Virus record (IMG/VR): IMGVR_UViG_3300021256_000067
DNA from: an uncultured virus (IMG/VR IMGVR_UViG_3300021256_000067)
Taxonomy: Duplodnaviria; Heunggongvirae; Uroviricota; Caudoviricetes
Reading direction: 5' to 3' (one strand)
DNA: 20,000 nucleotides
The position numbers and the translations under genes were made by a program. Positions 1 to 8,388 of this stretch are shown piece after piece (the stretch's first letter is position 1; the number at the start of each line of letters is the position of its first letter). Under the pieces are notes generated by a model that saw nothing but the letters and a program-made list of their open reading frames with translations, made no database searches and had not been told where the DNA came from.

Positions 1-353
1 TGGCATATTGGCAAAATCAAAATAAAAATTATCCGTGGTTTAAAAATTATATAAATGATATCATTAATTTATATTTTAATAATAAACAAGATTTTGAGAA
101 ATATATAAAAACATGTATTAATGATAGTTATGGTGGCTCTGATCTAAGATCAGAGGAAATATATTACAGTGTTATTAATAATTACGGTTTATTCATTGAT
201 AAGTTATTCAGAATACCGGATGAATCTGAATTAAAAGCTATAGTAGATATTACAAAATATGTACCTTTAAAATGGCAGTCTACATTCTGGAATGTCGCTA
301 TTTTTGGAGATAGGGGGCTTATATGGTGCATAGTTAAACATAATGAAATTTAA
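1..353 (+). CDS. 3' part of hypothetical protein (starts upstream of window)
   Basis: Open frame from base 3 (AYWQNQNKNYPWF...WCIVKHNEI) to TAA at 351-353, followed by a terminator hairpin. Confidence 0.8.
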   Translation, partial: AYWQNQNKNYPWFKNYINDIINLYFNNKQDFEKYIKTCINDSYGGSDLRSEEIYYSVINNYGLFIDKLFRIPDESELKAIVDITKYVPLKWQSTFWNVAIFGDRGLIWCIVKHNEI

Positions 354-360
354 TTATAAT

Positions 361-390
361 AAAAAAGGACCTTTTCAAAAGGCCCTTTTT
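361..390. terminator. Bidirectional intrinsic terminator
   Basis: aaaaaagg-accttttcaaaaggc-cctttt: hairpin with A-run on the left and T-run on the right, between the convergent CDS and tRNA array. Confidence 0.75.
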
Positions 391-482
391 ATATCATATT
401 TTAATTTAAGGAAATATACTACCAATATAAAAGGTAATATATAGGTTTTATATTTATTAATATAAAAATTGTTTGAATTTAG

Positions 483-553
483 TTGGCCATGGAGGTAACG
501 CTCCCCCTCCCTCAGGACCAAAACCTGATGTGCGACTTTCACACCGATGGCCA
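483..553 (-). tRNA. tRNA-Gln(TTG), non-canonical T-loop AGCGTTA
   Basis: Acceptor tggccat/atggcca; anticodon arm tcagg-ttTTGgt-cctga. Confidence 0.85.
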
Positions 554-563
554 ATATAAGATG

Positions 564-635
564 AGCGATTGACCAGAATCGAACTGGCATCTCTAGCTTG
601 GAAGGCTAGAGCACTAACCATTGTGCTACAATCGC
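564..635 (-). tRNA. tRNA-Gly(TCC)
   Basis: Acceptor gcgattg/caatcgc; ctagc-ctTCCaa-gctag; TTCGATT T-loop. Confidence 0.95.
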
Positions 636-642
636 ATAAATG

Positions 643-725
643 TGCCCCGTGATGGACTTGCACCACCCATAGCCAAAGCTATCTGATTTACAGTCAGACC
701 CGTTGCTATCTCCGGTCACCGAGGC
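643..725 (-). tRNA. tRNA-Tyr(GTA)
   Basis: tctga-ctGTAaa-tcaga; long variable arm tagc-tttg-gcta; T-loop TGCAAGT. Confidence 0.9.
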
Positions 726-872
726 ATATTTTGAGCCTTACAAGATTGCGCACTCTTGCAAGTTGTTTATATCTGTGCTTGTCCATCTTTACACCATTCC
801 TTAAGAGCCCTGCATATCAGAATTACGTACTTCTATACGATACCGAACTCACCTGATACAATCTCAAAATTG

Positions 873-944
873 AGCCTCCTGTCGGATTCGAACCAACGAC
901 CTGCTCATTACAAGTGAGCTGCACTACCACTGTGCTAAGGAGGC
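873..944 (-). tRNA. tRNA-Thr(TGT)
   Basis: Acceptor gcctcct/aggaggc; gctca-ctTGTaa-tgagc; canonical T arm. Confidence 0.95.
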
Positions 945-1110
945 AATTAAAATAATTTATATAGAAATTCTAGCTAGTCGGATAAAGGTAACAAGGATCC
1001 TAAAACCATACCTTGCTTCTCTTTTGGATAAGAGTGTTTGTATATATTTAGGACACATACTTCCTAATATCCTCAACCTTTTCTCCAATTTCAATATGTA
1101 AATTATTTTG

Positions 1111-1183
1111 TGACCTCGGTGGGACTCGAACCCACGGCTCTTACATTAAAAGTGTAATACTCTACCAACTGAGTTACGAAGTC
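1111..1183 (-). tRNA. tRNA-Lys(TTT) copy 1
   Basis: gacttcg/cgaggtc; ttaca-ctTTTaa-tgtaa; canonical T arm. Confidence 0.95.
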
Positions 1184-1380
1184 ATTTTACGCAAGGCAAA
1201 CAATAAAACCCTGCTTATCCTTTCTGTTAGTTTCTATTATAGTTTCCAAAACTTACAATGGCGATTTCCTCACCTTCAAAAATCTCATTTCATTCGGTTG
1301 TACAACCTATGATGATTATGGTTTCATCAAATACCCCATACACTTTAATGATCAGCATGGTTACGTCAGGTCTTGTTTAG

Positions 1381-1537
1381 TCGGATAAGGAGGAATTGAA
1401 CCCCCACCCAATATGATTATGCTTCTATGACTGCGCGGTCACTTGTTGAAACATCAGCATATCGTCTTCAGTATTCCGCGCTTTTATTCCCGAAGCTCCC
1501 ACCCCTTGTGGGTGCGCTACCGTTGCGCTATTATCCG
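1381..1537 (-). ncRNA. tRNA-Pro-like RNA with ~90 nt variable-region insert
   Basis: Acceptor cggataa/ttatccg+A, D arm gcgc-aacggta-gcgc, ccca-caAGGgg-tggg, insert with gcttc/gaagc and gcgcgg/ccgcgc stems, T arm ggggg-ttcaatt-cctcc. Confidence 0.7.
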
Positions 1538-1547
1538 TTATTTGTGC

Positions 1548-1681
1548 TTGATATGTCATCGTGCTAACCGTTACACTAAGGAGTCGAACCAATCTTATGA
1601 CACAATCAAGCACTTTGATATGTCATCGTGCTAACCGTTACACTAAGGAGTCGAACCAATCTTATGACACAATCAAGCACT
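1548..1681. repeat. Exact 67-bp tandem duplication of a permuted tRNA-elbow-like element
   Basis: ttgatatgtcatcgtgctaaccgttacactaaggagtcgaaccaatcttatgacacaatcaagcact at 1548-1614 and 1615-1681. Confidence 0.95.
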
Positions 1682-1844
1682 TACTAAAAATGACCCAATA
1701 CAAATTTGCAACTTCACATTGTTGTTTGCTGAACGTGCTTCTTTGTCACCTTTACACCTTCCATCACCGCTATGTATTTAGTAGTCTCGAACTGTCGCGA
1801 CCAGTCACGAGTAAATACCCCCTTTCAACAATGTCATTTCTTTG

Positions 1845-1916
<72 letters not shown>

Positions 1917-2205
1917 ATATATAGCCAAGATTTTGCGCAATCTGGATACCTATCTTGGGGTTCCATGACGTCACCTCTGAAGTGGGTCTCTCTCCATCGC
2001 CTAAACAGTGCGCTACGTCAGCATCCAATATCTTGGCTTTTGTAAAAAAGTTCAATCCTCTGCAGATGGAGTGTTCTGATGAATGATTTGCACGTTCTTT
2101 CATCCTTTCAGGACAGCTTTACTATATAAGCTAATCAGACACTCACGAACTGAACTCTATGTATAAAATTGAAATCCCTATAGGTAAATGCAAACCATCA
2201 CACAC

Positions 2206-2302
2206 AGTCAATGAATGGGAGTCGAACCCATAGTCTCTGAACGTTACAGTGGTGATACCGATGCGCCTAACCACTGACTGATGAACAATCATTCACATTG
2301 AT
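2206..2302 (-). ncRNA. Atypical tRNA-like RNA
   Basis: tcaatg/cattga acceptor-like stem and T arm atggg-ttcgact-cccat; the D and anticodon arms are replaced by other hairpins (cagtgg...ccactg). Confidence 0.5.
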
Positions 2303-2315
2303 TTCAACTTTATTG

Positions 2316-2389
2316 TACTGCCAGCGGGGTATGATCCCGCAATCTCCGCCGTGAAAGGGCGACGAGTTAGCCAATTACTCCATGGCAGC
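2316..2389 (-). tRNA. tRNA-Glu(TTC) copy 1, T-loop ATCATAC
   Basis: gctgcca/tggcagt; tcgcc-ctTTCac-ggcgg. Confidence 0.88.
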
Positions 2390-2394
2390 ATTTG

Positions 2395-2443
2395 CGGTGC
2401 GTACGTGACTCGAACCAATCTTTTCATATTAATCAAACGCACC
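2395..2443 (-). pseudogene. Truncated tRNA-like remnant (acceptor + T-loop)
   Basis: Perfect ggtgcgt/acgcacc stem enclosing GGTTCGAGTC; no D or anticodon arm. Confidence 0.5.
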
Positions 2444-2448
2444 AATTG

Positions 2449-2522
2449 TACTTCGGCTGGGATTCAAACCCAGGACCCACAGCTTAGAAGGCTGTTGCTC
2501 TATTCATCTGAGCTACCGAAGC
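2449..2522 (-). tRNA. tRNA-Arg(TCT) copy 1
   Basis: gcttcgg/ccgaagt; acagc-ctTCTaa-gctgt. Confidence 0.95.
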
Positions 2523-2697
2523 AAATAAACACAGGAATGGACTAGCCAAACACACCTATAGGCGTAACCCACCAACATCCTGTGTTGTCGCAGCGAGATT
2601 ATGTACATCACGTCTGCCGCTGTTTCTCCCACTTGCTCCTGAGAAACATAGCCAAACCTTGGAGTGGAGTTTCTGAAAATCTCCCAACCGTATGTAG

Positions 2698-2734
2698 TGG
2701 TCGTGATAGGGTTTGAACCTACGACCTCTTGATT
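2698..2734 (-). pseudogene. 3' tRNA half (Ile2-like) forming the intron 3' exon
   Basis: aatcaagaggtcgtaggttcaaaccctatcacgacca; 5 differences from the 3' part of the CAT tRNA at 5648-5721. Confidence 0.75.
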
Positions 2735-3204
2735 CTTACCACACTATGTTACCATAGCCAACCTAATATTGCCTCTCCTGACAGGCACTTTACACTGGCG
2801 GTCAACTCCAGAAACCTCCTTTTCACAAAGGTATAGGTTGTTGTGGTCTAGACTGTTTACCATATTGAAATTCTTGCAAGATTGAGGTTGTTTCGTATAA
2901 ATTCCTCCAACGTTAATTTTTCGAAGATTCGGAATTACTCATTTTCAACTCAAATTTCAACTTAGGTATCACTCATTCAGTCTACACGATTATAATGAAT
3001 AATGTCAGGTATGGAACAATTCCTTCCCACAGAATATTCAATATATTATCTGATTCATTATATTCGCTCGGTGTTGTCCTTACACATTATTGGTTAGTGT
3101 GCAAAGTGTTATGCTCTTATCATTCTTTACGATGATTCAAAGGATTTCCACCGAATTTGGGTGATTCTACTATGGGATTTCTCGCCATAGCACTCTTTAT
3201 AAAA
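2735..3204 (-). mobile_element. Group I intron (IC3/Azoarcus tRNA-Ile type), core apparently degenerate, no ORF
   Basis: Minus strand shows IGS GTG, P2 ctatgg/ccatag, P AAATTCGGTGGAAA, Q GGACAACACCGAGC, R GTGTAGACTG..GAGTGAT-ACCTAAG, S TATGGTAAACAGTC, P9 accac/gtggt, and terminal G before AATC; same order and similar motifs to the Azoarcus pre-tRNA-Ile intron. Confidence 0.8.
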
Positions 3205-3236
3205 ATGTAACACTCTTCCAACTGAATTACGAAGTC
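3205..3236 (-). pseudogene. 5' tRNA half (Lys-like) forming the intron 5' exon
   Basis: gacttcgtaattcagttggaagagtgttacat; 4 differences from the 5' part of tRNA-Lys at 1111-1183. Confidence 0.75.
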
Positions 3237-3243
3237 AAATCAG

Positions 3244-3316
3244 TGGATCCAGTGAGACTCGAACTCACGGTCTCCTGCGTGCAAGGCAGGCGCTTTTCCA
3301 ACTAAGCTATGAACCC
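3244..3316 (-). tRNA. tRNA-Ala(TGC)
   Basis: G3:U70 pair, cctgc-ctTGCac-gcagg. Confidence 0.95.
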
Positions 3317-3344
3317 ATCAACTGGCAGTGTTGATAAAAAATTG

Positions 3345-3418
3345 TCGAGAACGTATGATTCGAACATCTCCTCCTCATCCCAAATGAGGTATGCTAACCG
3401 GGTTACACCACGTTCTCG
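3345..3418 (-). tRNA. tRNA-Pro(TGG)
   Basis: cgagaac/gttctcg; cctca-ttTGGga-tgagg; imperfect T stem. Confidence 0.85.
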
Positions 3419-3618
3419 TGGCGCCGCCTAACTTATATTTTTACATTTAGTATATATCCTAAACACTGGGGCCGTGCGGCATGTTCCCAAGTACTATGGA
3501 AAGCTTCTCCCCATCTAATGGCCAATTAGAGTCTCAGTAGTTGCGGTCGAAGACGCTAAAACTTGGCAAGGGTTATGATCCTTTGTAGATTACCTAATCT
3601 CACCCTATATAATCTTTG

Positions 3619-3764
3619 TCGGTAAAGATGGAATCGAACCATCACTGCTATAAATATAAAACATTCAACATTCTATATAAATAACACCTTTGTACCTTAA
3701 GACGTCATTATAGTACAAAACCTCCCAGACCAATATGGGTATGCTACCTTTACACCATTTACCA
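3619..3764 (-). ncRNA. tRNA-Pro-like RNA with ~75 nt two-hairpin variable-region insert
   Basis: tggtaaa/tttaccg+A, D arm tggtgtaaaggtagcat, ccca-tatTGGtc-tggg (8-nt loop), hairpins tttgtac/gtacaaa and tgttat..atagca, T arm gatgg-ttcgatt-ccatc. Confidence 0.7.
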
Positions 3765-3767
3765 AAG

Positions 3768-3842
3768 CGGTCCTGACGGGACTCGAACCCGCAACCTCGC
3801 ACCGTGACAGGGTGGTATGCTAACCAATTGCACCACAGAACC
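3768..3842 (-). tRNA. tRNA-Asp(GTC)
   Basis: ggttctg/caggacc+G; cacc-ctGTCac-ggtg. Confidence 0.92.
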
Positions 3843-4257
3843 AAAAAAATAATGTCTCGGCTAAAGTAAATTCTGATAACGAATCAATTATTGCATTGTA
3901 GTTTATGCCTGATGGCAGTCCGGCATAATTACCCTTCCTCGTTTATGGTATTGGGCATACACAGTTTCACGAACTGTCAAAACTTAATTCCAATTTCCTT
4001 CCGTACTTGTGGAACTAACAATAATTGCCTCACAATAGTTATCAATACTCAAAATGTAAAGGAAATTCAAATAATCATTTCAGACTATTTTAATTCAAGA
4101 ATGTTTGCAACCATTCAAGTTACATTCTATGAGATACTCCACCTTTAAACTATTGCTCTTCGTTGTTGTTTTGTTGATGCAAACCCTACCATCGGCGCAT
4201 CAGTCTTGAACCTTCTGTACTATAGTTCTTCAACATCGAAACCATTATTTAGTTTTG

Positions 4258-4327
4258 CGGGTAACAGAGGACTCGAACCTCCTGTAATAATCTTAATTAT
4301 CTGCAGTTTTAAGATTACACACCACCC
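4258..4327 (-). ncRNA. D-armless tRNA-like RNA
   Basis: gggtggt/gttaccc acceptor-like stem, T arm ggagg-ttcgagt-cctct, and a single long hairpin taatcttaa/ttaagatta in between. Confidence 0.55.
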
Positions 4328-4392
4328 AATTTTAAATTCAACTAATGTACACTCATTGAATACAAATTTGTGTAGAAACCCATGTTTAAAAG

Positions 4393-4466
4393 TTGCGTGG
4401 GGTCAGATTCGAACTGACGACCTTCTGCTTATGAGACAGACGAGCTGACCACTGCTCCACCCCGCA
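4393..4466 (-). tRNA. tRNA-fMet-like (CAT), atypical
   Basis: Initiator-type D arm TGGAGCAGTGGTCAGCTCG; tctgt-ctCATaa-gcaga; bulged acceptor strand cccacgca. Confidence 0.8.
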
Positions 4467-4654
4467 ATATGTAAATAGAAGCAGTAGCATTTAGACCGAT
4501 TTCAATCGCAACATCCAATTATCCTGCTACGGACTTATGTTCCTTTGTACTTCTATTTTTTCTTTAAAAGAAAGGTTAAGCTCTATGCATTTAAGCTACT
4601 CTCCGTACGCCGTCATTGAGATTGGATTTCAACCAATATCACCTTTCTTCTTAG

Positions 4655-4738
4655 ATGCCACCGAAGGATTCGAACCTCCTCCCGAATCACCAGGGATGTA
4701 CCTGCGGGTTCCATATATGCAGCTAACATACGGTGGCA
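4655..4738 (-). ncRNA. Atypical tRNA-like RNA
   Basis: Perfect tgccacc/ggtggca acceptor and T arm ggagg-ttcgaat-ccttc; non-standard D and anticodon arms (cccg-cagg-tacatc-cctg..cggg). Confidence 0.6.
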
Positions 4739-4862
4739 ATGTAAAGTTGAAACTCTTGCAAGATGTGAGTGCAGTTTCTATAACTACCAAGAGCAGTCCC
4801 TATACTGCTGCTTTCAACGTCTTGAGGTTTTAATTTTATACTCACAAATTCCAACTTTATTG

Positions 4863-4933
4863 TAGCCCAGCACGGTAACGCTCCGTGTTCTCAAGAATGA
4901 AAATCTTGCGTTCTGCTTCTAAACTACAGGGCC
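4863..4933 (-). tRNA. tRNA-Glu(TTC) copy 2, T-loop AGCGTTA
   Basis: caaga-ttTTCat-tcttg; T arm cacgg-agcgtta-ccgtg. Confidence 0.85.
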
Positions 4934-5236
4934 ATATTTGAGCAATTTGATATGGAGTGTACTGCTCATTGATTCATGTTGTGATCTTCAACAATCTTCT
5001 CTCCTTGAATCAGAAATTCTCCGGATAAATTCTGAATCCGTAGCATCCTACTCAGGCTTGACGAAGGCCTCTCGGAACTCTTGCTCGGCTAATTTACAGA
5101 AAACTAGCAAAAATAAATGGATTCTTCTTATAAATCTATGTGGACAATCAAATGCAAAAAAGGAGGTGTCCATGGAAATCTATCAGAATCTTGCACATTT
5201 GGCGAGAATCCACGATCGTGATAGACTTGTTATTTG

Positions 5237-5310
5237 CGCTCCCTCTTGGACTCGAACCAAGGACCCTCTGATTAACAGTCAGATGCTCTAACCAACTGAG
5301 CTAAGGAAGC
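5237..5310 (-). tRNA. tRNA-Asn(GTT)
   Basis: tctga-ctGTTaa-tcaga; canonical D and T arms. Confidence 0.95.
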
Positions 5311-5333
5311 TATCAAATTTTCTAATTTATTAC

Positions 5334-5455
5334 CCACTATGTCAATGAGCTCTGTTTTAAAATCACTCTACAAAGTTATATCAAAATAATGACATAAAAA
5401 AATTTTTTGAGTAATTAACTTTATTTTAACATTTAAGTTAAATTTTGTTTAAGTA
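5334..5455 (-). promoter_or_regulatory. Bacteroidetes-type promoter + boxA-like element, copy 1
   Basis: TAnnTTTG -7 box (TAACTTTG, 5371-5378) followed by GAGCTCATTGACATAGTGG; AT-rich upstream; near-repeat of 5827-5949. Confidence 0.7.
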
Positions 5456-5539
5456 CCCGGAGCCGGGGTCGAACCGGCACGGCCGCAATGGCCAAGGGAT
5501 TTTAAGTCCCTCATGTCTACCCAATTCCATCATCCGGGC
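5454..5539 (-). tRNA. tRNA-Leu(TAA)
   Basis: aggga-ctTAAaa-tccct; long variable arm ggcc/ggcc. Confidence 0.95.
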
Positions 5540-5567
5540 ATTTATTCAATATATCAAAGAACATTTG

Positions 5568-5641
5568 TGACCCCGGTGGGACTTGAACCCACGACCCCTT
5601 GATTAAAAGTCAAGTGCATCTACCAACTGAGCTACGAAGTC
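5568..5641 (-). tRNA. tRNA-Lys(TTT) copy 2
   Basis: cttga-ctTTTaa-tcaag. Confidence 0.95.
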
Positions 5642-5647
5642 AACTCG

Positions 5648-5721
5648 TGGTCCTTCTAGGGCTTGAACCTAGGACCTCTTGATTATGAGTCAATTGCTCT
5701 AACCAACTGAGCTAAAGGACC
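5648..5721 (-). tRNA. tRNA-Ile2(CAT) (lysidine type; elongator Met less likely)
   Basis: ggtcctt/aaggacc+A, TAGCTCAGTTGGTTAGAGC, ttga-ctCATaa-tcaa. Confidence 0.85.
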
Positions 5722-5728
5722 AATATTG

Positions 5729-5816
5729 CGGAAAGAGAGGGATTCGAACCCCCGATACGCTATTAACGCATGCCGGTTTTCAAGACCGGTGTATTCAACC
5801 GCTCTACCATCTTTCC
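5729..5816 (-). tRNA. tRNA-Ser(TGA)
   Basis: ggaaaga/tctttcc+G; ccggt-ctTGAaa-accgg; long variable arm. Confidence 0.95.
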
Positions 5817-5826
5817 GAATTTATCT

Positions 5827-5949
5827 CCACTATGTCAATGAGCTCCGTTTTAAAAATACTTTACAAAGATATATCAAATCAATGATATAAAAAAATATTT
5901 TCAAATATTTAACTTTAATTTAACATTTAAGTTAAATTTTGTTTAAGTA
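5827..5949 (-). promoter_or_regulatory. Bacteroidetes-type promoter + boxA-like element, copy 2
   Basis: TATCTTTG (5864-5871) followed by GAGCTCATTGACATAGTGG. Confidence 0.7.
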
Positions 5950-6019
5950 TCCCGGGAAGGAATCGAACCTTCATTTACGGTTTAGAAGACCGTCATTCTA
6001 TCCGTTGAATTACCGAGAC
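5948..6019 (-). tRNA. tRNA-Arg(TCT) copy 2
   Basis: gtctcgg/ccgggat; acggt-ctTCTaa-accgt. Confidence 0.92.
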
Positions 6020-6023
6020 CCGT

Positions 6024-6060
6024 AAAAAATCAAATCCCGAGACTCGCATAGTCCGGGATT
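6024..6060 (-). terminator. Attenuator-type terminator immediately 5' of the first tRNA
   Basis: AATCCCGG-ACT-ATGCG-AGT-CT-CGGGATT followed by TGATTTTT. Confidence 0.7.
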
Positions 6061-6085
6061 CATATTCTTCATCTGTTAATTGTCT

Positions 6086-6190
6086 TTACATTATATACCC
6101 GGAACTGTATATGCACCATGAATCGGCATTTCTTTTTATTAAAGAAACGCTTTCTGGATTTGTTTGATATGTTCCGAAAATATATTGCAT
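6086..6190 (-). CDS. Putative 34-aa leader peptide MQYIFGTYQTNPESVSLIKRNADSWCIYSSGYIM
   Basis: ATG 6190 to TAA 6086; its last codons carry AGTTCCGGG, complementary to the terminator 5' arm CCCGGACT. Confidence 0.6.
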   Translation of the reverse strand: MQYIFGTYQTNPESVSLIKRNADSWCIYSSGYIM

Positions 6191-6242
6191 TTAATTATTT
6201 ATCTATTAAAAATAAATTTAAAATTTAATTTTCATAATTTTT

Positions 6243-6776
6243 TTATTGGCAAGAGAAAGCATCCTCGCCAATCGAGGTCACTGAGCTTGGGATTTCAATC
6301 TTGGTCAAACCACTGCAACCATAGAAGGCCTGGTCGCCAATCGAAGTCACCGAGTTGCCGATTGTCACCGAGGTCAAGCCTTCGCAATAAGCGAAGGCAT
6401 AGTCGCCAATCGAAGTCACCGAGTTGGGGATGGTCACCGAGGTCAAGCCTCTGCAATTATTGAAGGCACTGTTATATATTTTTTTAACTTTATCAAAATC
6501 TTCTATGTATATATGGTATTCACCTGGTTCATATTCATTTACCGTATATCCATTCCGATCTAATTTAATATGTTCACCGTTTATATAAACTTTATCTTTA
6601 TATTTTTTATAACCATTATTTATAGGATTAAATATTTTTATTCTTCCGCGTCTATTCACTTTATAGACAAGCTGATATTGTATATATTTTTTTACATCAG
6701 ACGCTTTAATGATTCCGGAATCTTCAATATCAGAATTATCCCATTCGATTAATATCCTATTTAATATATTATCCAT
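6243..6776 (-). CDS. BspA-type (LRR_5) leucine-rich repeat protein with phage N-terminal leader
   Basis: Three 23-aa repeats of the [19 protein letters not shown] type. Confidence 0.9.
6267..6468 (-). repeat. 69-bp imperfect tandem repeats encoding the LRRs
   Basis: tcgccaatcgaagtcaccgagttg and tcaccgaggtcaagcct recur at 69-bp spacing. Confidence 0.85.
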
Positions 6777-6795
6777 AATTTTATTTGAAGTTTAA

Positions 6796-7533
6796 TTAAG
6801 GAAATGATACAAACCAATAGCCTTTATTACAATCTTTAAAATATTCTTTTGCCTCATTTATTTCTTCTGTTCCTTCGTCTTTATATAAACCCGAATTGAC
6901 GGTTATACCGCCGATAAGGTTTGTCGTGAATGTTCCTATCAATCTTGAAACCTCTACTTTGCATTTGCCGCATATATATTTTCTTACCATACCATCATTC
7001 CATAAATCCTGCTCGGGTATACGGACCATCATCTCAACCACTACATTCGTCTTGGGATCATGTCCTAAAACCTGCAGCCTGTGAGTATTGGGATTCCAGC
7101 TGTGACGAATATCAACCAAAGAGAATGTTTTCATTTGATCCCAAGAAAGCCAGGCTATCTGCATGGAAGCTATCCATTCATTATTGAATTGTGATCCGAA
7201 ATAAATTCCTGAATTGACTGCTTTCTGGAATGACATGTCCGGATCATTGAACCCGTAAAAATTATACATCTTGTGAGCTTCTTGAAATTTAGTCACTGAT
7301 GTAACACAATCCGCGAATTCTATAACTCTGTCTTTTCTGAATTCTGGTCTGTAAAATAATTCTTTTGGCAGCATCATAAACTTTTGCTCTAAACTGTCAG
7401 GATACAGCTGATAAATCTCAAGCGTCGATTTCTCTATTACACGTTTGATTTCCTTTTTGGGAAGATTTATATCTATTGATCCTCCCAGTGTTATTTCATT
7501 CTCTATCCAGTTGGCTAATTCGTCTTTTGTCAT
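6796..7533 (-). CDS. T4 gp13-like neck protein
   Basis: N-terminal 'EL..I...LGG.I.I.L....I...I......YQLY.D' and C-terminal 'WNDGMVRKY....K...R........L.GG.T.N....EG..E' resemble the gp13 family from memory. Confidence 0.7.
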   Translation of the reverse strand: MTKDELANWIENEITLGGSIDINLPKKEIKRVIEKSTLEIYQLYPDSLEQKFMMLPKELFYRPEFRKDRVIEFADCVTSVTKFQEAHKMYNFYGFNDPDMSFQKAVNSGIYFGSQFNNEWIASMQIAWLSWDQMKTFSLVDIRHSWNPNTHRLQVLGHDPKTNVVVEMMVRIPEQDLWNDGMVRKYICGKCKVEVSRLIGTFTTNLIGGITVNSGLYKDEGTEEINEAKEYFKDCNKGYWFVSFP

Positions 7534-7551
7534 TTTTAATAAAAATTAATT

Positions 7552-8388
7552 TTATATAGTATGGGTAAGTTGTATTTTTGTGTTATTATCATCCCAGTAT
7601 TCTGATAATTTAAATCCATCTATGCATAAATCTGTATCAAACGGAAGATCAAATTTAATCATATTACTTGGTTCGGATTTTTCGACAGCGAGCATCCGCC
7701 CTAATTCGTGAAGATCTAAAAATCCTTTTCCTTTCTTCCAATAAATGTCATTAATATTAATAAACACCTTTTTAATATATTTAAATTCAAAGGGAGAATC
7801 AAAAGTATAATCGGGGTTTTTAGTATCTGTTTTCTCAAAATGTACAGATATTCCTATATTCTCATTCAGAAATGATATCATATAACCTATAAAATCCCCG
7901 TAATAGAATTTATATTTTTTATATAATATCCCTAATCCGTCAATTTTTTTAAGTAATCCATTTATAATATTTTCAATATCAGCCCTTAATGAACGGTATT
8001 CATCTGAATATATTCCTCTTGCCAAGCTGCTTGGTTCAAAAAATATATCATTCATAGTAAAATTGACATTTATTTCATAAGCATCTTTTCCTACCATTCC
8101 TATATCACTCACCGCGTCATATGAAAGCCATGTATCAAGTACTTCTTTACTGTGAGTAATAAACGATAATTTATTTCCCGGATTCATTAAAATATGGGAT
8201 GCGCAGAAATATATATAATCATAAATTCTTGTATATACATCTATAATATTATTCTTAAGATATTCCTGTACTTCTTCAATATGATCATTAAGATCATAAA
8301 AAGAATTTTGAGATAATATTCCATTAGAATCCTGAACTGTATCAGAATTCCATTCAATTAAAATCCTATTTAATATCTTTTTATTCAT
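7552..8388 (-). CDS. Hypothetical protein with shared ILNRILIEW leader
   Basis: 278-aa ORF, tightly packed in operon. Confidence 0.8.
   Translation of the reverse strand: MNKKILNRILIEWNSDTVQDSNGILSQNSFYDLNDHIEEVQEYLKNNIIDVYTRIYDYIYFCASHILMNPGNKLSFITHSKEVLDTWLSYDAVSDIGMVGKDAYEINVNFTMNDIFFEPSSLARGIYSDEYRSLRADIENIINGLLKKIDGLGILYKKYKFYYGDFIGYMISFLNENIGISVHFEKTDTKNPDYTFDSPFEFKYIKKVFININDIYWKKGKGFLDLHELGRMLAVEKSEPSNMIKFDLPFDTDLCIDGFKLSEYWDDNNTKIQLTHTI

Follow-up and report, generated by a model that had tools for sequence, protein, structure and literature searches.

A candidate ribosome-dependent attenuator ahead of the tRNA array of a Lak-like gut phage

We analyzed a 20,000-nucleotide stretch of DNA from an uncultured virus of the Caudoviricetes (IMG/VR record IMGVR_UViG_3300021256_000067), which we call the window. 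It includes an array of tRNA genes (16 according to ARAGORN, or 17 according to Rfam at gathering score), and ahead of the array lies a spacer of 223 nt (6242-6020, minus strand). Our preferred explanation, in which we place moderate confidence, is that this spacer is a transcribed leader and a ribosome-dependent transcription attenuator that gates the transcription of the phage's tRNAs. The decisive support for an attenuator is comparative: a similar arrangement is found at the heads of tRNA arrays in other huge phages. The phage is akin to the Lak megaphages of Prevotella (a neighboring 245-amino-acid protein is about 40% identical), its sequence is present in public runs from ruminant gut samples, and its host is probably a member of the Bacteroidota.

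Layout of the leader and the putative terminator

All of the candidate attenuator's features in the window are on the minus strand. Upstream of the spacer, a block of protein-coding genes runs from 9553 to 6243, and its last gene encodes a 177-amino-acid protein with a BspA-type leucine-rich repeat (LRR_5). Between the stop of this gene (6243) and the leader open reading frame (ORF) is an AT-rich stretch (6191-6242), which is the leader's 5' untranslated part and possibly a promoter region: there is a single weak match to a sigma-70-like promoter at 6222-6194. The leader ORF itself (6086-6190) has 34 codons plus a TAA stop codon, with its ATG at 6190-6188 and its TAA at 6088-6086; another TAA lies immediately 5' of the ATG.

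The terminator hairpin begins 24 nt after the stop codon. It spans 6061-6032 and has 12 base pairs, one bulged U, the loop AUGCG, and a predicted energy of -15.2 kcal/mol, or -20 kcal/mol with the flanking A-rich/U-rich pairs; folding indicates that the U-tract can pair with the A-rich sequence at 6071-6064. By analogy to known attenuators, we refer to the hairpin's 5' arm (6050-6061, from folding) as region 3 and to its 3' arm (6032-6044, from folding) as region 4. The U-tract and the bases that follow it occupy 6020-6031: just 4 bases (6023-6020) separate the run of U at 6029-6024 from the start, at 6019, of tRNA-Arg(UCU) (5947-6019, identified by both ARAGORN and Rfam), which is the array's first gene. 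No other terminator-like site precedes any tRNA of the array. The initial annotation, which was made from the sequence alone, had described a short ORF that ends about 25 nt before a GC hairpin and U-tract, 4 nt from the first tRNA, and we confirmed this, with a gap of exactly 24 nt. A promoter would not fit into the 4 nt between the U-tract and tRNA-Arg, so in every reading of this region the tRNA must be made by readthrough of the hairpin.

The start of the leader ORF can pair with its end: UUCGGAAC (6178-6171) pairs with GUUCCGGG (6105-6098), and the pairing extends on to the stop codon. In the minimum free energy (MFE) fold, the 105-nt leader ORF forms one long imperfect hairpin, whose 5' strand (region 1, 6165-6189) includes UUCGGAAC and the UG of the start codon, so that the start codon sits within the 1:2 stem. 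The 3' strand (region 2, 6087-6115) includes the stop codon and a segment, AGUUCCGGG (6106-6098), that we call the antiterminator. Between the two strands is a perfect inner hairpin of 10 bp with a 5-nt loop (6126-6150), and the AAA-AGA codons that the initial annotation remarked on lie in its 3' strand. The fold of the leader ORF has an energy of -28.9 kcal/mol (z = -5.3), and none of 300 shuffled sequences was as good. For the whole 223-nt spacer, z ranged from -5.1 to -6.1, as compared to -0.5 to -3.2 for the 12 other array spacers of at least 40 nt; the leader is thus the most structured of the 13. The structure of the leader ORF and of the spacer is clearly unusual, and it is the strongest signal within the window.

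Region 2 has a second potential partner, namely the 5' arm of the terminator. AGUUCCGGG, which lies 9-18 nt upstream of the leader's stop codon, can form 8 bp with one bulge with CCCGGACU of that arm, at -11.6 kcal/mol. The complementarity between the end of the ORF and the terminator arm, which had been proposed from the sequence, is therefore real. This is the best duplex that the 5' arm can form with the 181 nt upstream, and 32 of 1,000 dinucleotide shuffles equalled it (p = 0.032; the terminator-finder pipeline gave p = 0.025). The alternative partners of region 2 in the folds, region 1 or the terminator arm, give a trp-like layout with pairings 1:2, 2:3, and 3:4. A second upstream complement on the minus strand, GAUUCAU (6124-6118) with AUGAAUC (6063-6057), reaches the base of the terminator hairpin and forms in the fold with region 2 masked.

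The ORF by itself is not beyond chance (p of about 0.05 to 0.10). ATG ORFs with 34 codons or more arose on the same strand in 198 of 2,000 dinucleotide shuffles of the 223-nt spacer, and there are 12 ATG ORFs of at least this length on the minus strand of 1-6242. Requiring that the stop codon be at most 60 nt from the hairpin gave p = 0.049. Within the window, then, the signals from the ORF and from the complementarity are both modest.

The same design at the heads of other tRNA arrays

Of the 13 array heads that we compared, 1 is the window's, 2 belong to Lak megaphages, and the remaining 10 come from a further five huge phages. In Lak-A1 and Lak-B1, the heads of both arrays have an AT-rich stretch and a short ORF (37 or 42 codons), followed by a perfect hairpin and U-tract that lie 19-22 nt before the first tRNA. 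Within the ORF of the Lak-B type, the sequence of the terminator's 3' arm is repeated. The duplex of this type has an energy of -14.9 kcal/mol in Lak-B1 (matched by 0 of 500 shuffles) and of -11.5 kcal/mol in Lak-A1 (10 of 500); the complement of the Lak-A type is weaker (29 of 500 and 24 of 500). In five Lak variants, the start of the ORF also pairs with the distal part of the ORF, with these pairs flanking the antiterminator core. Among the five variants of the Lak-B leader, all four indels fall outside the ORF, and the stems of the terminator do not vary. A by-eye count of the substitutions in the ORF gave 3 synonymous and 8 nonsynonymous changes across the five variants, a pattern with no sign of protein-level constraint on the Lak-B ORF. 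Also in the alignment of the Lak-B type, there is a predicted pairing between the bases immediately 5' of the ATG (columns 59-65) and the U-tract of the terminator (columns 267-273), and two of these pairs have changed on both sides among the five Lak variants.

The five other huge phages encode the 245-amino-acid protein at 24-30% identity, and the tRNA matches listed for them, with 80 more matches beyond the list, gave 20 candidate heads. Ten of the 20 have a strong hairpin and T-tail 7-54 nt before the first tRNA, given a search window of 60 nt. One more head, W05b, whose hairpin ends 63 nt before the tRNA, was included after the search window was widened to 85 nt. Several of the candidates with no hairpin are probably not true heads, as tRNA-like sequence can be seen by eye just upstream of them. 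For 9 of the 10 hairpin-bearing heads, there is an upstream complement to the hairpin's 5' arm at p ≤ 0.033, and in all 10 of the heads that were scored, the complement lies inside the short ORF, within its last 10 or so codons.

Across the set, 12 of the 13 heads have an ATG ORF of 24-42 codons that ends 17-39 nt before the hairpin. For single heads, the p value for such an ORF ranged from 0.016 to 0.11; the combined value was 5e-8 for the 13 heads, which include homologous pairs, or 3.5e-7 without two homologous leaders. By eye, several of the leader peptides begin with MKT-L/I/V-N, which is encoded with synonymous differences. This suggests that the mini-ORFs are translated, and we infer the same for the leader in the window.

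To put these numbers in context, we ran the same terminator finder on 94 kb of sequence from the window and related loci, which yielded 42 terminator-like sites. Three of the 42 had an arm complement at p ≤ 0.05, including the window's own hairpin, and none had one at p ≤ 0.01, so the shuffle test is well calibrated. An ORF of 24-42 codons at this distance preceded just 2 of 41 control terminators, versus 12 of the 13 heads, where it ends 17-39 nt before the hairpin. We also paired each of the 13 arms with each of the 13 upstream regions. Among 12 to 13 regions, an arm's own region ranked first in 5 cases, second in 3, third in 3, fourth in 1, and fifth in 1 (the window's own arm ranked second of 13). 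In other words, the preferred or a near-preferred partner of every terminator arm is the sequence upstream of it. The initial annotation had asked for conservation in relatives, and the recurrence in the 12 other huge-phage heads, against well-calibrated controls, is conservation of this kind, though of the design and not of the sequence.

Sequence similarity among the leaders is limited. BLAST of the leaders of two of the other phages found the leaders themselves and one partial match, and a pattern search for a 5' motif common to the leaders returned nothing useful. By eye, TATATTTG is present about 55-65 nt before the ATG in several of the other phages' leaders, and the window has near matches only; this sequence matches the -7 box of Bacteroidota promoters. 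Another motif that we noticed by eye, similar to GTTCTTTGAA, lies between the T-run and the first tRNA in L129, L131, L133, L147, and L148. Among the 12 single tRNA genes that we examined, a hairpin and T-run 7-8 nt upstream occur only in one orthologous Lak pair.

At one locus (L142, head W07b), a 16-bp antiterminator beats the terminator in the MFE fold, and the pairing probability of the terminator is 0.06, so the leaders may not all have the same default state. Calculating pairing probabilities at equilibrium while segments are masked is too crude a method to reveal a common logic across the 13 leaders.

How the switch would work

In the proposed mechanism, the 34-codon ORF would be transcribed and its two ends could pair (1:2). 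Region 2 could instead capture the 5' arm of the terminator (2:3), which would otherwise be part of the terminator (3:4) with its U-tract. On a leader without a ribosome, 1:2 and 3:4 would both form, and transcription would stop. A fast ribosome that reaches the stop codon would cover region 2, so that 3:4 would form and transcription would again stop. A ribosome that is slow or stalled in the first two-thirds of the ORF would hold 1:2 apart; 2:3 could then form before region 4 is made, and the polymerase would continue into the tRNA genes. The net effect of slow decoding would be more phage tRNA.

Constrained folds reproduce these states. With no ribosome, we obtained 1:2 and the terminator. 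If region 1 was masked, or if a ribosome was placed in the middle of the ORF before the 3' arm was made, 2:3 formed. Placing the ribosome on the stop codon masked region 2, and the terminator formed. At equilibrium, the terminator wins in every state that we modeled, so any antitermination must be kinetic.

The initial annotation had recognized the layout of ribosome-coupled attenuation, and the anatomical part of that proposal stands: the ORF, the antiterminator, and the terminator before the first tRNA are real and recur in 12 other heads. It had also argued that the two pairings are mutually exclusive and that a ribosome at the stop codon masks the antiterminator. A ribosome at the stop codon would indeed cover the antiterminator, but the 1:2 hairpin was overlooked, and the logic would be trp-like, with three states and not two. 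In particular, since the start of the ORF pairs with the antiterminator segment, a leader that is not translated should also lead to termination.

Relatives of the leader and evidence from RNA

Few sequences are close to the window's leader. A DNA search of 5900-7600 against a phage collection found no match, and neither the exact hairpin nor the tRNA-Arg, searched for as patterns, had a match in IMG/VR (0 each). When we compared the leader by BLAST to two IMG/VR records and to three Lak genomes, we obtained AT-rich noise only. We also considered whether the window's leader is homologous to the Lak-A leaders, which have a 12-mer in common with it, but the MAFFT alignment was unconvincing and we rejected this.

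A search of IMG/VR for close relatives with the 245-amino-acid protein as the query found nothing; with an alignment of the protein as the query, we obtained 9 IMG/VR loci and 80 metagenome loci. Of the metagenome loci, 60 were scanned, and a single one has tRNAs beside the gene for this protein; none of the 9 IMG/VR loci and none of the 3 Lak loci does. At that one locus (L021), the leader is identical over 361 aligned bases and the 245-amino-acid protein is 99% identical.

We also compared 5600-6800 to the contigs (from Logan) of four sequencing runs. In a bovine-gut run (X8), a 4,580-nt contig retains the leader; across the 220 nt of 6024-6243, it differs at 9 positions and has 1 gap (about 96% alike). 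The changes that we could see are at 6061, 6191, and 6193, along with the deletion at 6208, and these include 3 of the 9 differences. The AT-rich part ahead of the leader ORF is the most variable (6191, 6193, and 6208), and the change at 6061 replaces G-U by A-U in the basal part of the terminator hairpin. The identical locus L021 and this bovine contig, with 3 of its 9 differences displayed, gave no covariation for the window's leader. To either side of the leader, the bovine contig differs: it has 72 other letters where tRNA-Arg lies, and where the LRR gene would be it has a different stretch of about 1.26 kb, with a gene that is longer. The pattern resembles an exchange of cassettes to the left and right of a conserved leader. 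In the window, the 177-amino-acid LRR protein (6243-6776, minus strand) and a 278-amino-acid protein (7552-8388, minus strand) have the N-terminal motif ILNRILIEW in common.

A sheep-gut metatranscriptome (run X4) includes a 382-nt contig that is identical to 5843-6224: it covers the leader, the hairpin, and tRNA-Arg and extends into the spacer that follows. Together with one other contig (5034-5702), it accounts for the entire 0.33 word share of 5200-7600 in this run, so the upstream protein-coding genes seem to be absent from the X4 RNA. This is a hint, from one run whose contigs show neither ends nor strand nor levels, that the leader and the tRNA are on one transcript and that there is at least occasional readthrough of the hairpin. 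The contig across the hairpin would fit a leaky or nonfunctional terminator equally well.

What the leader could sense

The leader peptide uses 19 of the 20 amino acids within 34 residues, and each of these is used one to five times. Just 0.16% of 4,387 windows of 34 amino acids from the phage's own proteins are this diverse (p = 0.0016); the diversity is also unusual given the composition of the phage's proteins (p = 0.008) or relative to stop-free shuffles (p = 0.016-0.017). In the 12 other leaders of the set, amino acid diversity is average or lower, so high diversity is a property of the window's leader and not of the Lak-like class. A peptide with 19 of the 20 amino acids would be a general sensor of decoding speed, rather than specific to arginine and lysine.

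The initial annotation had linked the AAA-AGA codons (lysine and arginine) to the tRNA-Arg(UCU) downstream, and we found no support for this link. We did not find, within the 34 codons, any run of regulatory codons or any enrichment that matches the array's tRNAs. Codons that are read by those tRNAs make up 15 of the leader's 34 codons, versus 52% of the 4,421 codons in the phage's genes. Furthermore, the bovine-gut relative keeps the leader even though other sequence replaces tRNA-Arg.

The peptide did not match any family in Pfam or PHROG. A phmmer search against 1.84 billion representative sequences gave 6 matches, with no small homolog among them: all six are proteins of 323-715 amino acids that aligned in 3-7 stretches. 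The three that we inspected (P0015, P0016, and P0019) are repeat proteins of unrelated families.

The rest of the array

In the spacer after tRNA-Arg (5817-5946, minus strand), an AT-rich hairpin with a T-run is followed by a conserved block that ends just before tRNA-Ser. This hairpin and T-run may confine any control by the leader to tRNA-Arg alone. The spacer between tRNA-Leu and tRNA-Asn (5311-5452, minus strand) is a copy of it: the two are 82-83% identical over two repeat blocks, and both have the AT-rich hairpin, the T-run, and the conserved block just before the next tRNA. The copied spacer may divide the array into units, as a recurring module for processing or one with a terminator/promoter. 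The array's tail has a canonical terminator (388-364, minus strand), with a perfect stem of 11 bp and a T-run.

We noticed several other features in the array. A 67-nt unit is duplicated exactly in tandem at 1548-1681 (plus-strand coordinates), within a long spacer. Rfam reports tRNA matches at 4863-4933 and 643-725 that were not called by ARAGORN, and there are T-arm-like repeats in spacers of 300-700 nt (near 1392, 2215, 2697, 3613, and 4268, and at 4612-4680). The array may hold additional tRNAs, some of them perhaps unusual or degenerate, or RNAs that resemble tRNAs.

Alternative explanations

The leader's structure might matter on its own, independently of translation, with the hairpins being part of the tRNA precursor and the ORF a by-product. 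Such a structured leader could be a leaky terminator that sets the dosage of the tRNA, a processing site for a double-strand-specific RNase, a stabilizer for the 3' end of the upstream RNA after cleavage by RNase P, or an element whose trigger is a protein or RNA factor and not a ribosome. The strongest signal that we have is structural (z = -5.3 to -6.1), the ORF alone is within chance, its start codon is paired, RNA crosses the hairpin, and the Lak-B ORF shows no protein-level constraint; all of these favor a structured leader. It would leave unexplained the open frame of 24-42 codons that stops 17-39 nt ahead of the hairpin in 12 of 13 heads, versus 2 of 41 controls, as well as the location of the arm complement in the last 10 or so codons in 10 of 10 scored heads and the related N-termini with synonymous differences. 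We consider this explanation to be unlikely. The statistics for the heads as a class also weigh against a plainer explanation, in which an intrinsic terminator insulates the array from the upstream structural-gene operon, and both the ORF and the 8-bp complement arose by chance. The p values from the single window are weak enough to allow this, the block of same-direction genes (9553-6243) needs an end, and a canonical terminator closes the array at its other end (388-364) as well. However, just 4 nt separate the U-tract from the tRNA, so that a promoter would not fit and readthrough is needed; the hairpin begins (at 6061) about 180 nt past the stop of the upstream gene (6243) and behind a structured ORF of 105 nt; and the X4 RNA joins the leader to the tRNA, with the upstream genes apparently absent. 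An insulating terminator seems to us quite improbable.

More doubtful still, in our judgment, is an independent small gene, for either the 34-residue protein or a small RNA of about 170 nt with its own terminator, whose location at the array is accidental. The promoter-like AT-rich stretch upstream, the N-terminal motif in common with other phages' mini-ORFs, and an amino acid diversity like that of a real protein are what such a gene might have. It belongs to no Pfam or PHROG family and has no small homolog by phmmer, and neither the arm complement nor the fixed position next to a tRNA would be explained. We prefer the attenuator: its anatomy, the accompanying statistics, its recurrence, and an RNA contig across the hairpin are observed, whereas translation of the ORF, termination at the hairpin, and the switch itself are predictions of that model.

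Implications and comparison to known systems

Phage tRNA arrays are usually regarded as constitutive cargo, which either matches codon usage or replaces tRNAs that are lost to host defenses. We tentatively propose that Lak-like large gut phages gate their tRNA arrays by means of a translated mini-gene that tests decoding speed: slow ribosomes would cause the terminator to be bypassed, which would provide feedback on the supply of tRNA. Decoding could be slowed by depletion of host tRNAs, by codon mismatch, or by tRNA-cleaving defenses; the initial annotation had suggested activation of a host anticodon nuclease, in which case the switch might serve in counter-defense. If this is correct, then phages gauge decoding capacity and tune their tRNA supply on demand, and leader-peptide attenuation extends from enzymes of amino acid metabolism to the tRNA genes themselves. 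Given its recurrence across distantly related huge phages, the design could come to serve for marking regulated tRNA units when phage genomes are recovered from metagenomes. It is also compact and should be accessible to simple reporters.

In full-text literature searches, whose scope did not extend to subscription journals, we did not find a published account of such control of phage tRNA genes. Rfam had no leader family in 6020-6242, either at gathering score or at E ≤ 5, and no T-box in 1-6400 at E ≤ 5. T-box riboswitches act without a ribosome, through direct binding of uncharged tRNA, and the genes that they control are those for tRNA synthetases and amino acid metabolism; the likeness to the window is that control of antitermination is tied to the status of tRNA.

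The closest parallels in layout are the enterobacterial attenuators of trp, his, leu, thr, and pheA, which have a translated short leader, the pairings 1:2, 2:3, and 3:4, and an intrinsic terminator. In these amino acid operons, the terminator is the stronger of the two structures, and the antiterminator can prevail only through kinetics. The window likewise has a short ORF, the three alternative pairings, and a terminator directly before the genes, and its antiterminator is also weaker than its terminator, so that a kinetic win would be needed. Unlike those operons, the genes that would be regulated are for tRNAs instead of enzymes, the leader lacks a run of regulatory codons, the system is carried by a phage, and the 1:2 stem includes the start codon.

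In the breadth of what it would probably sense, the window's leader is more like the upstream ORF (uORF) of whiB7 (wblC) in mycobacteria. Stalling of translation in this uORF is believed to cause antitermination, and the attenuator responds to many different translational lesions, such as those in amino acid synthesis, in tRNA, and in tRNA synthetases, which makes it a general sensor of translation stress (PMC10274678). The whiB7 system differs from the window in that a transcription factor of Actinobacteria is controlled and in that the uORF is enriched in alanine (PMC10274678). The two systems have no sequence relationship, and the output in the window is the supply of tRNA, which would close a direct feedback loop.
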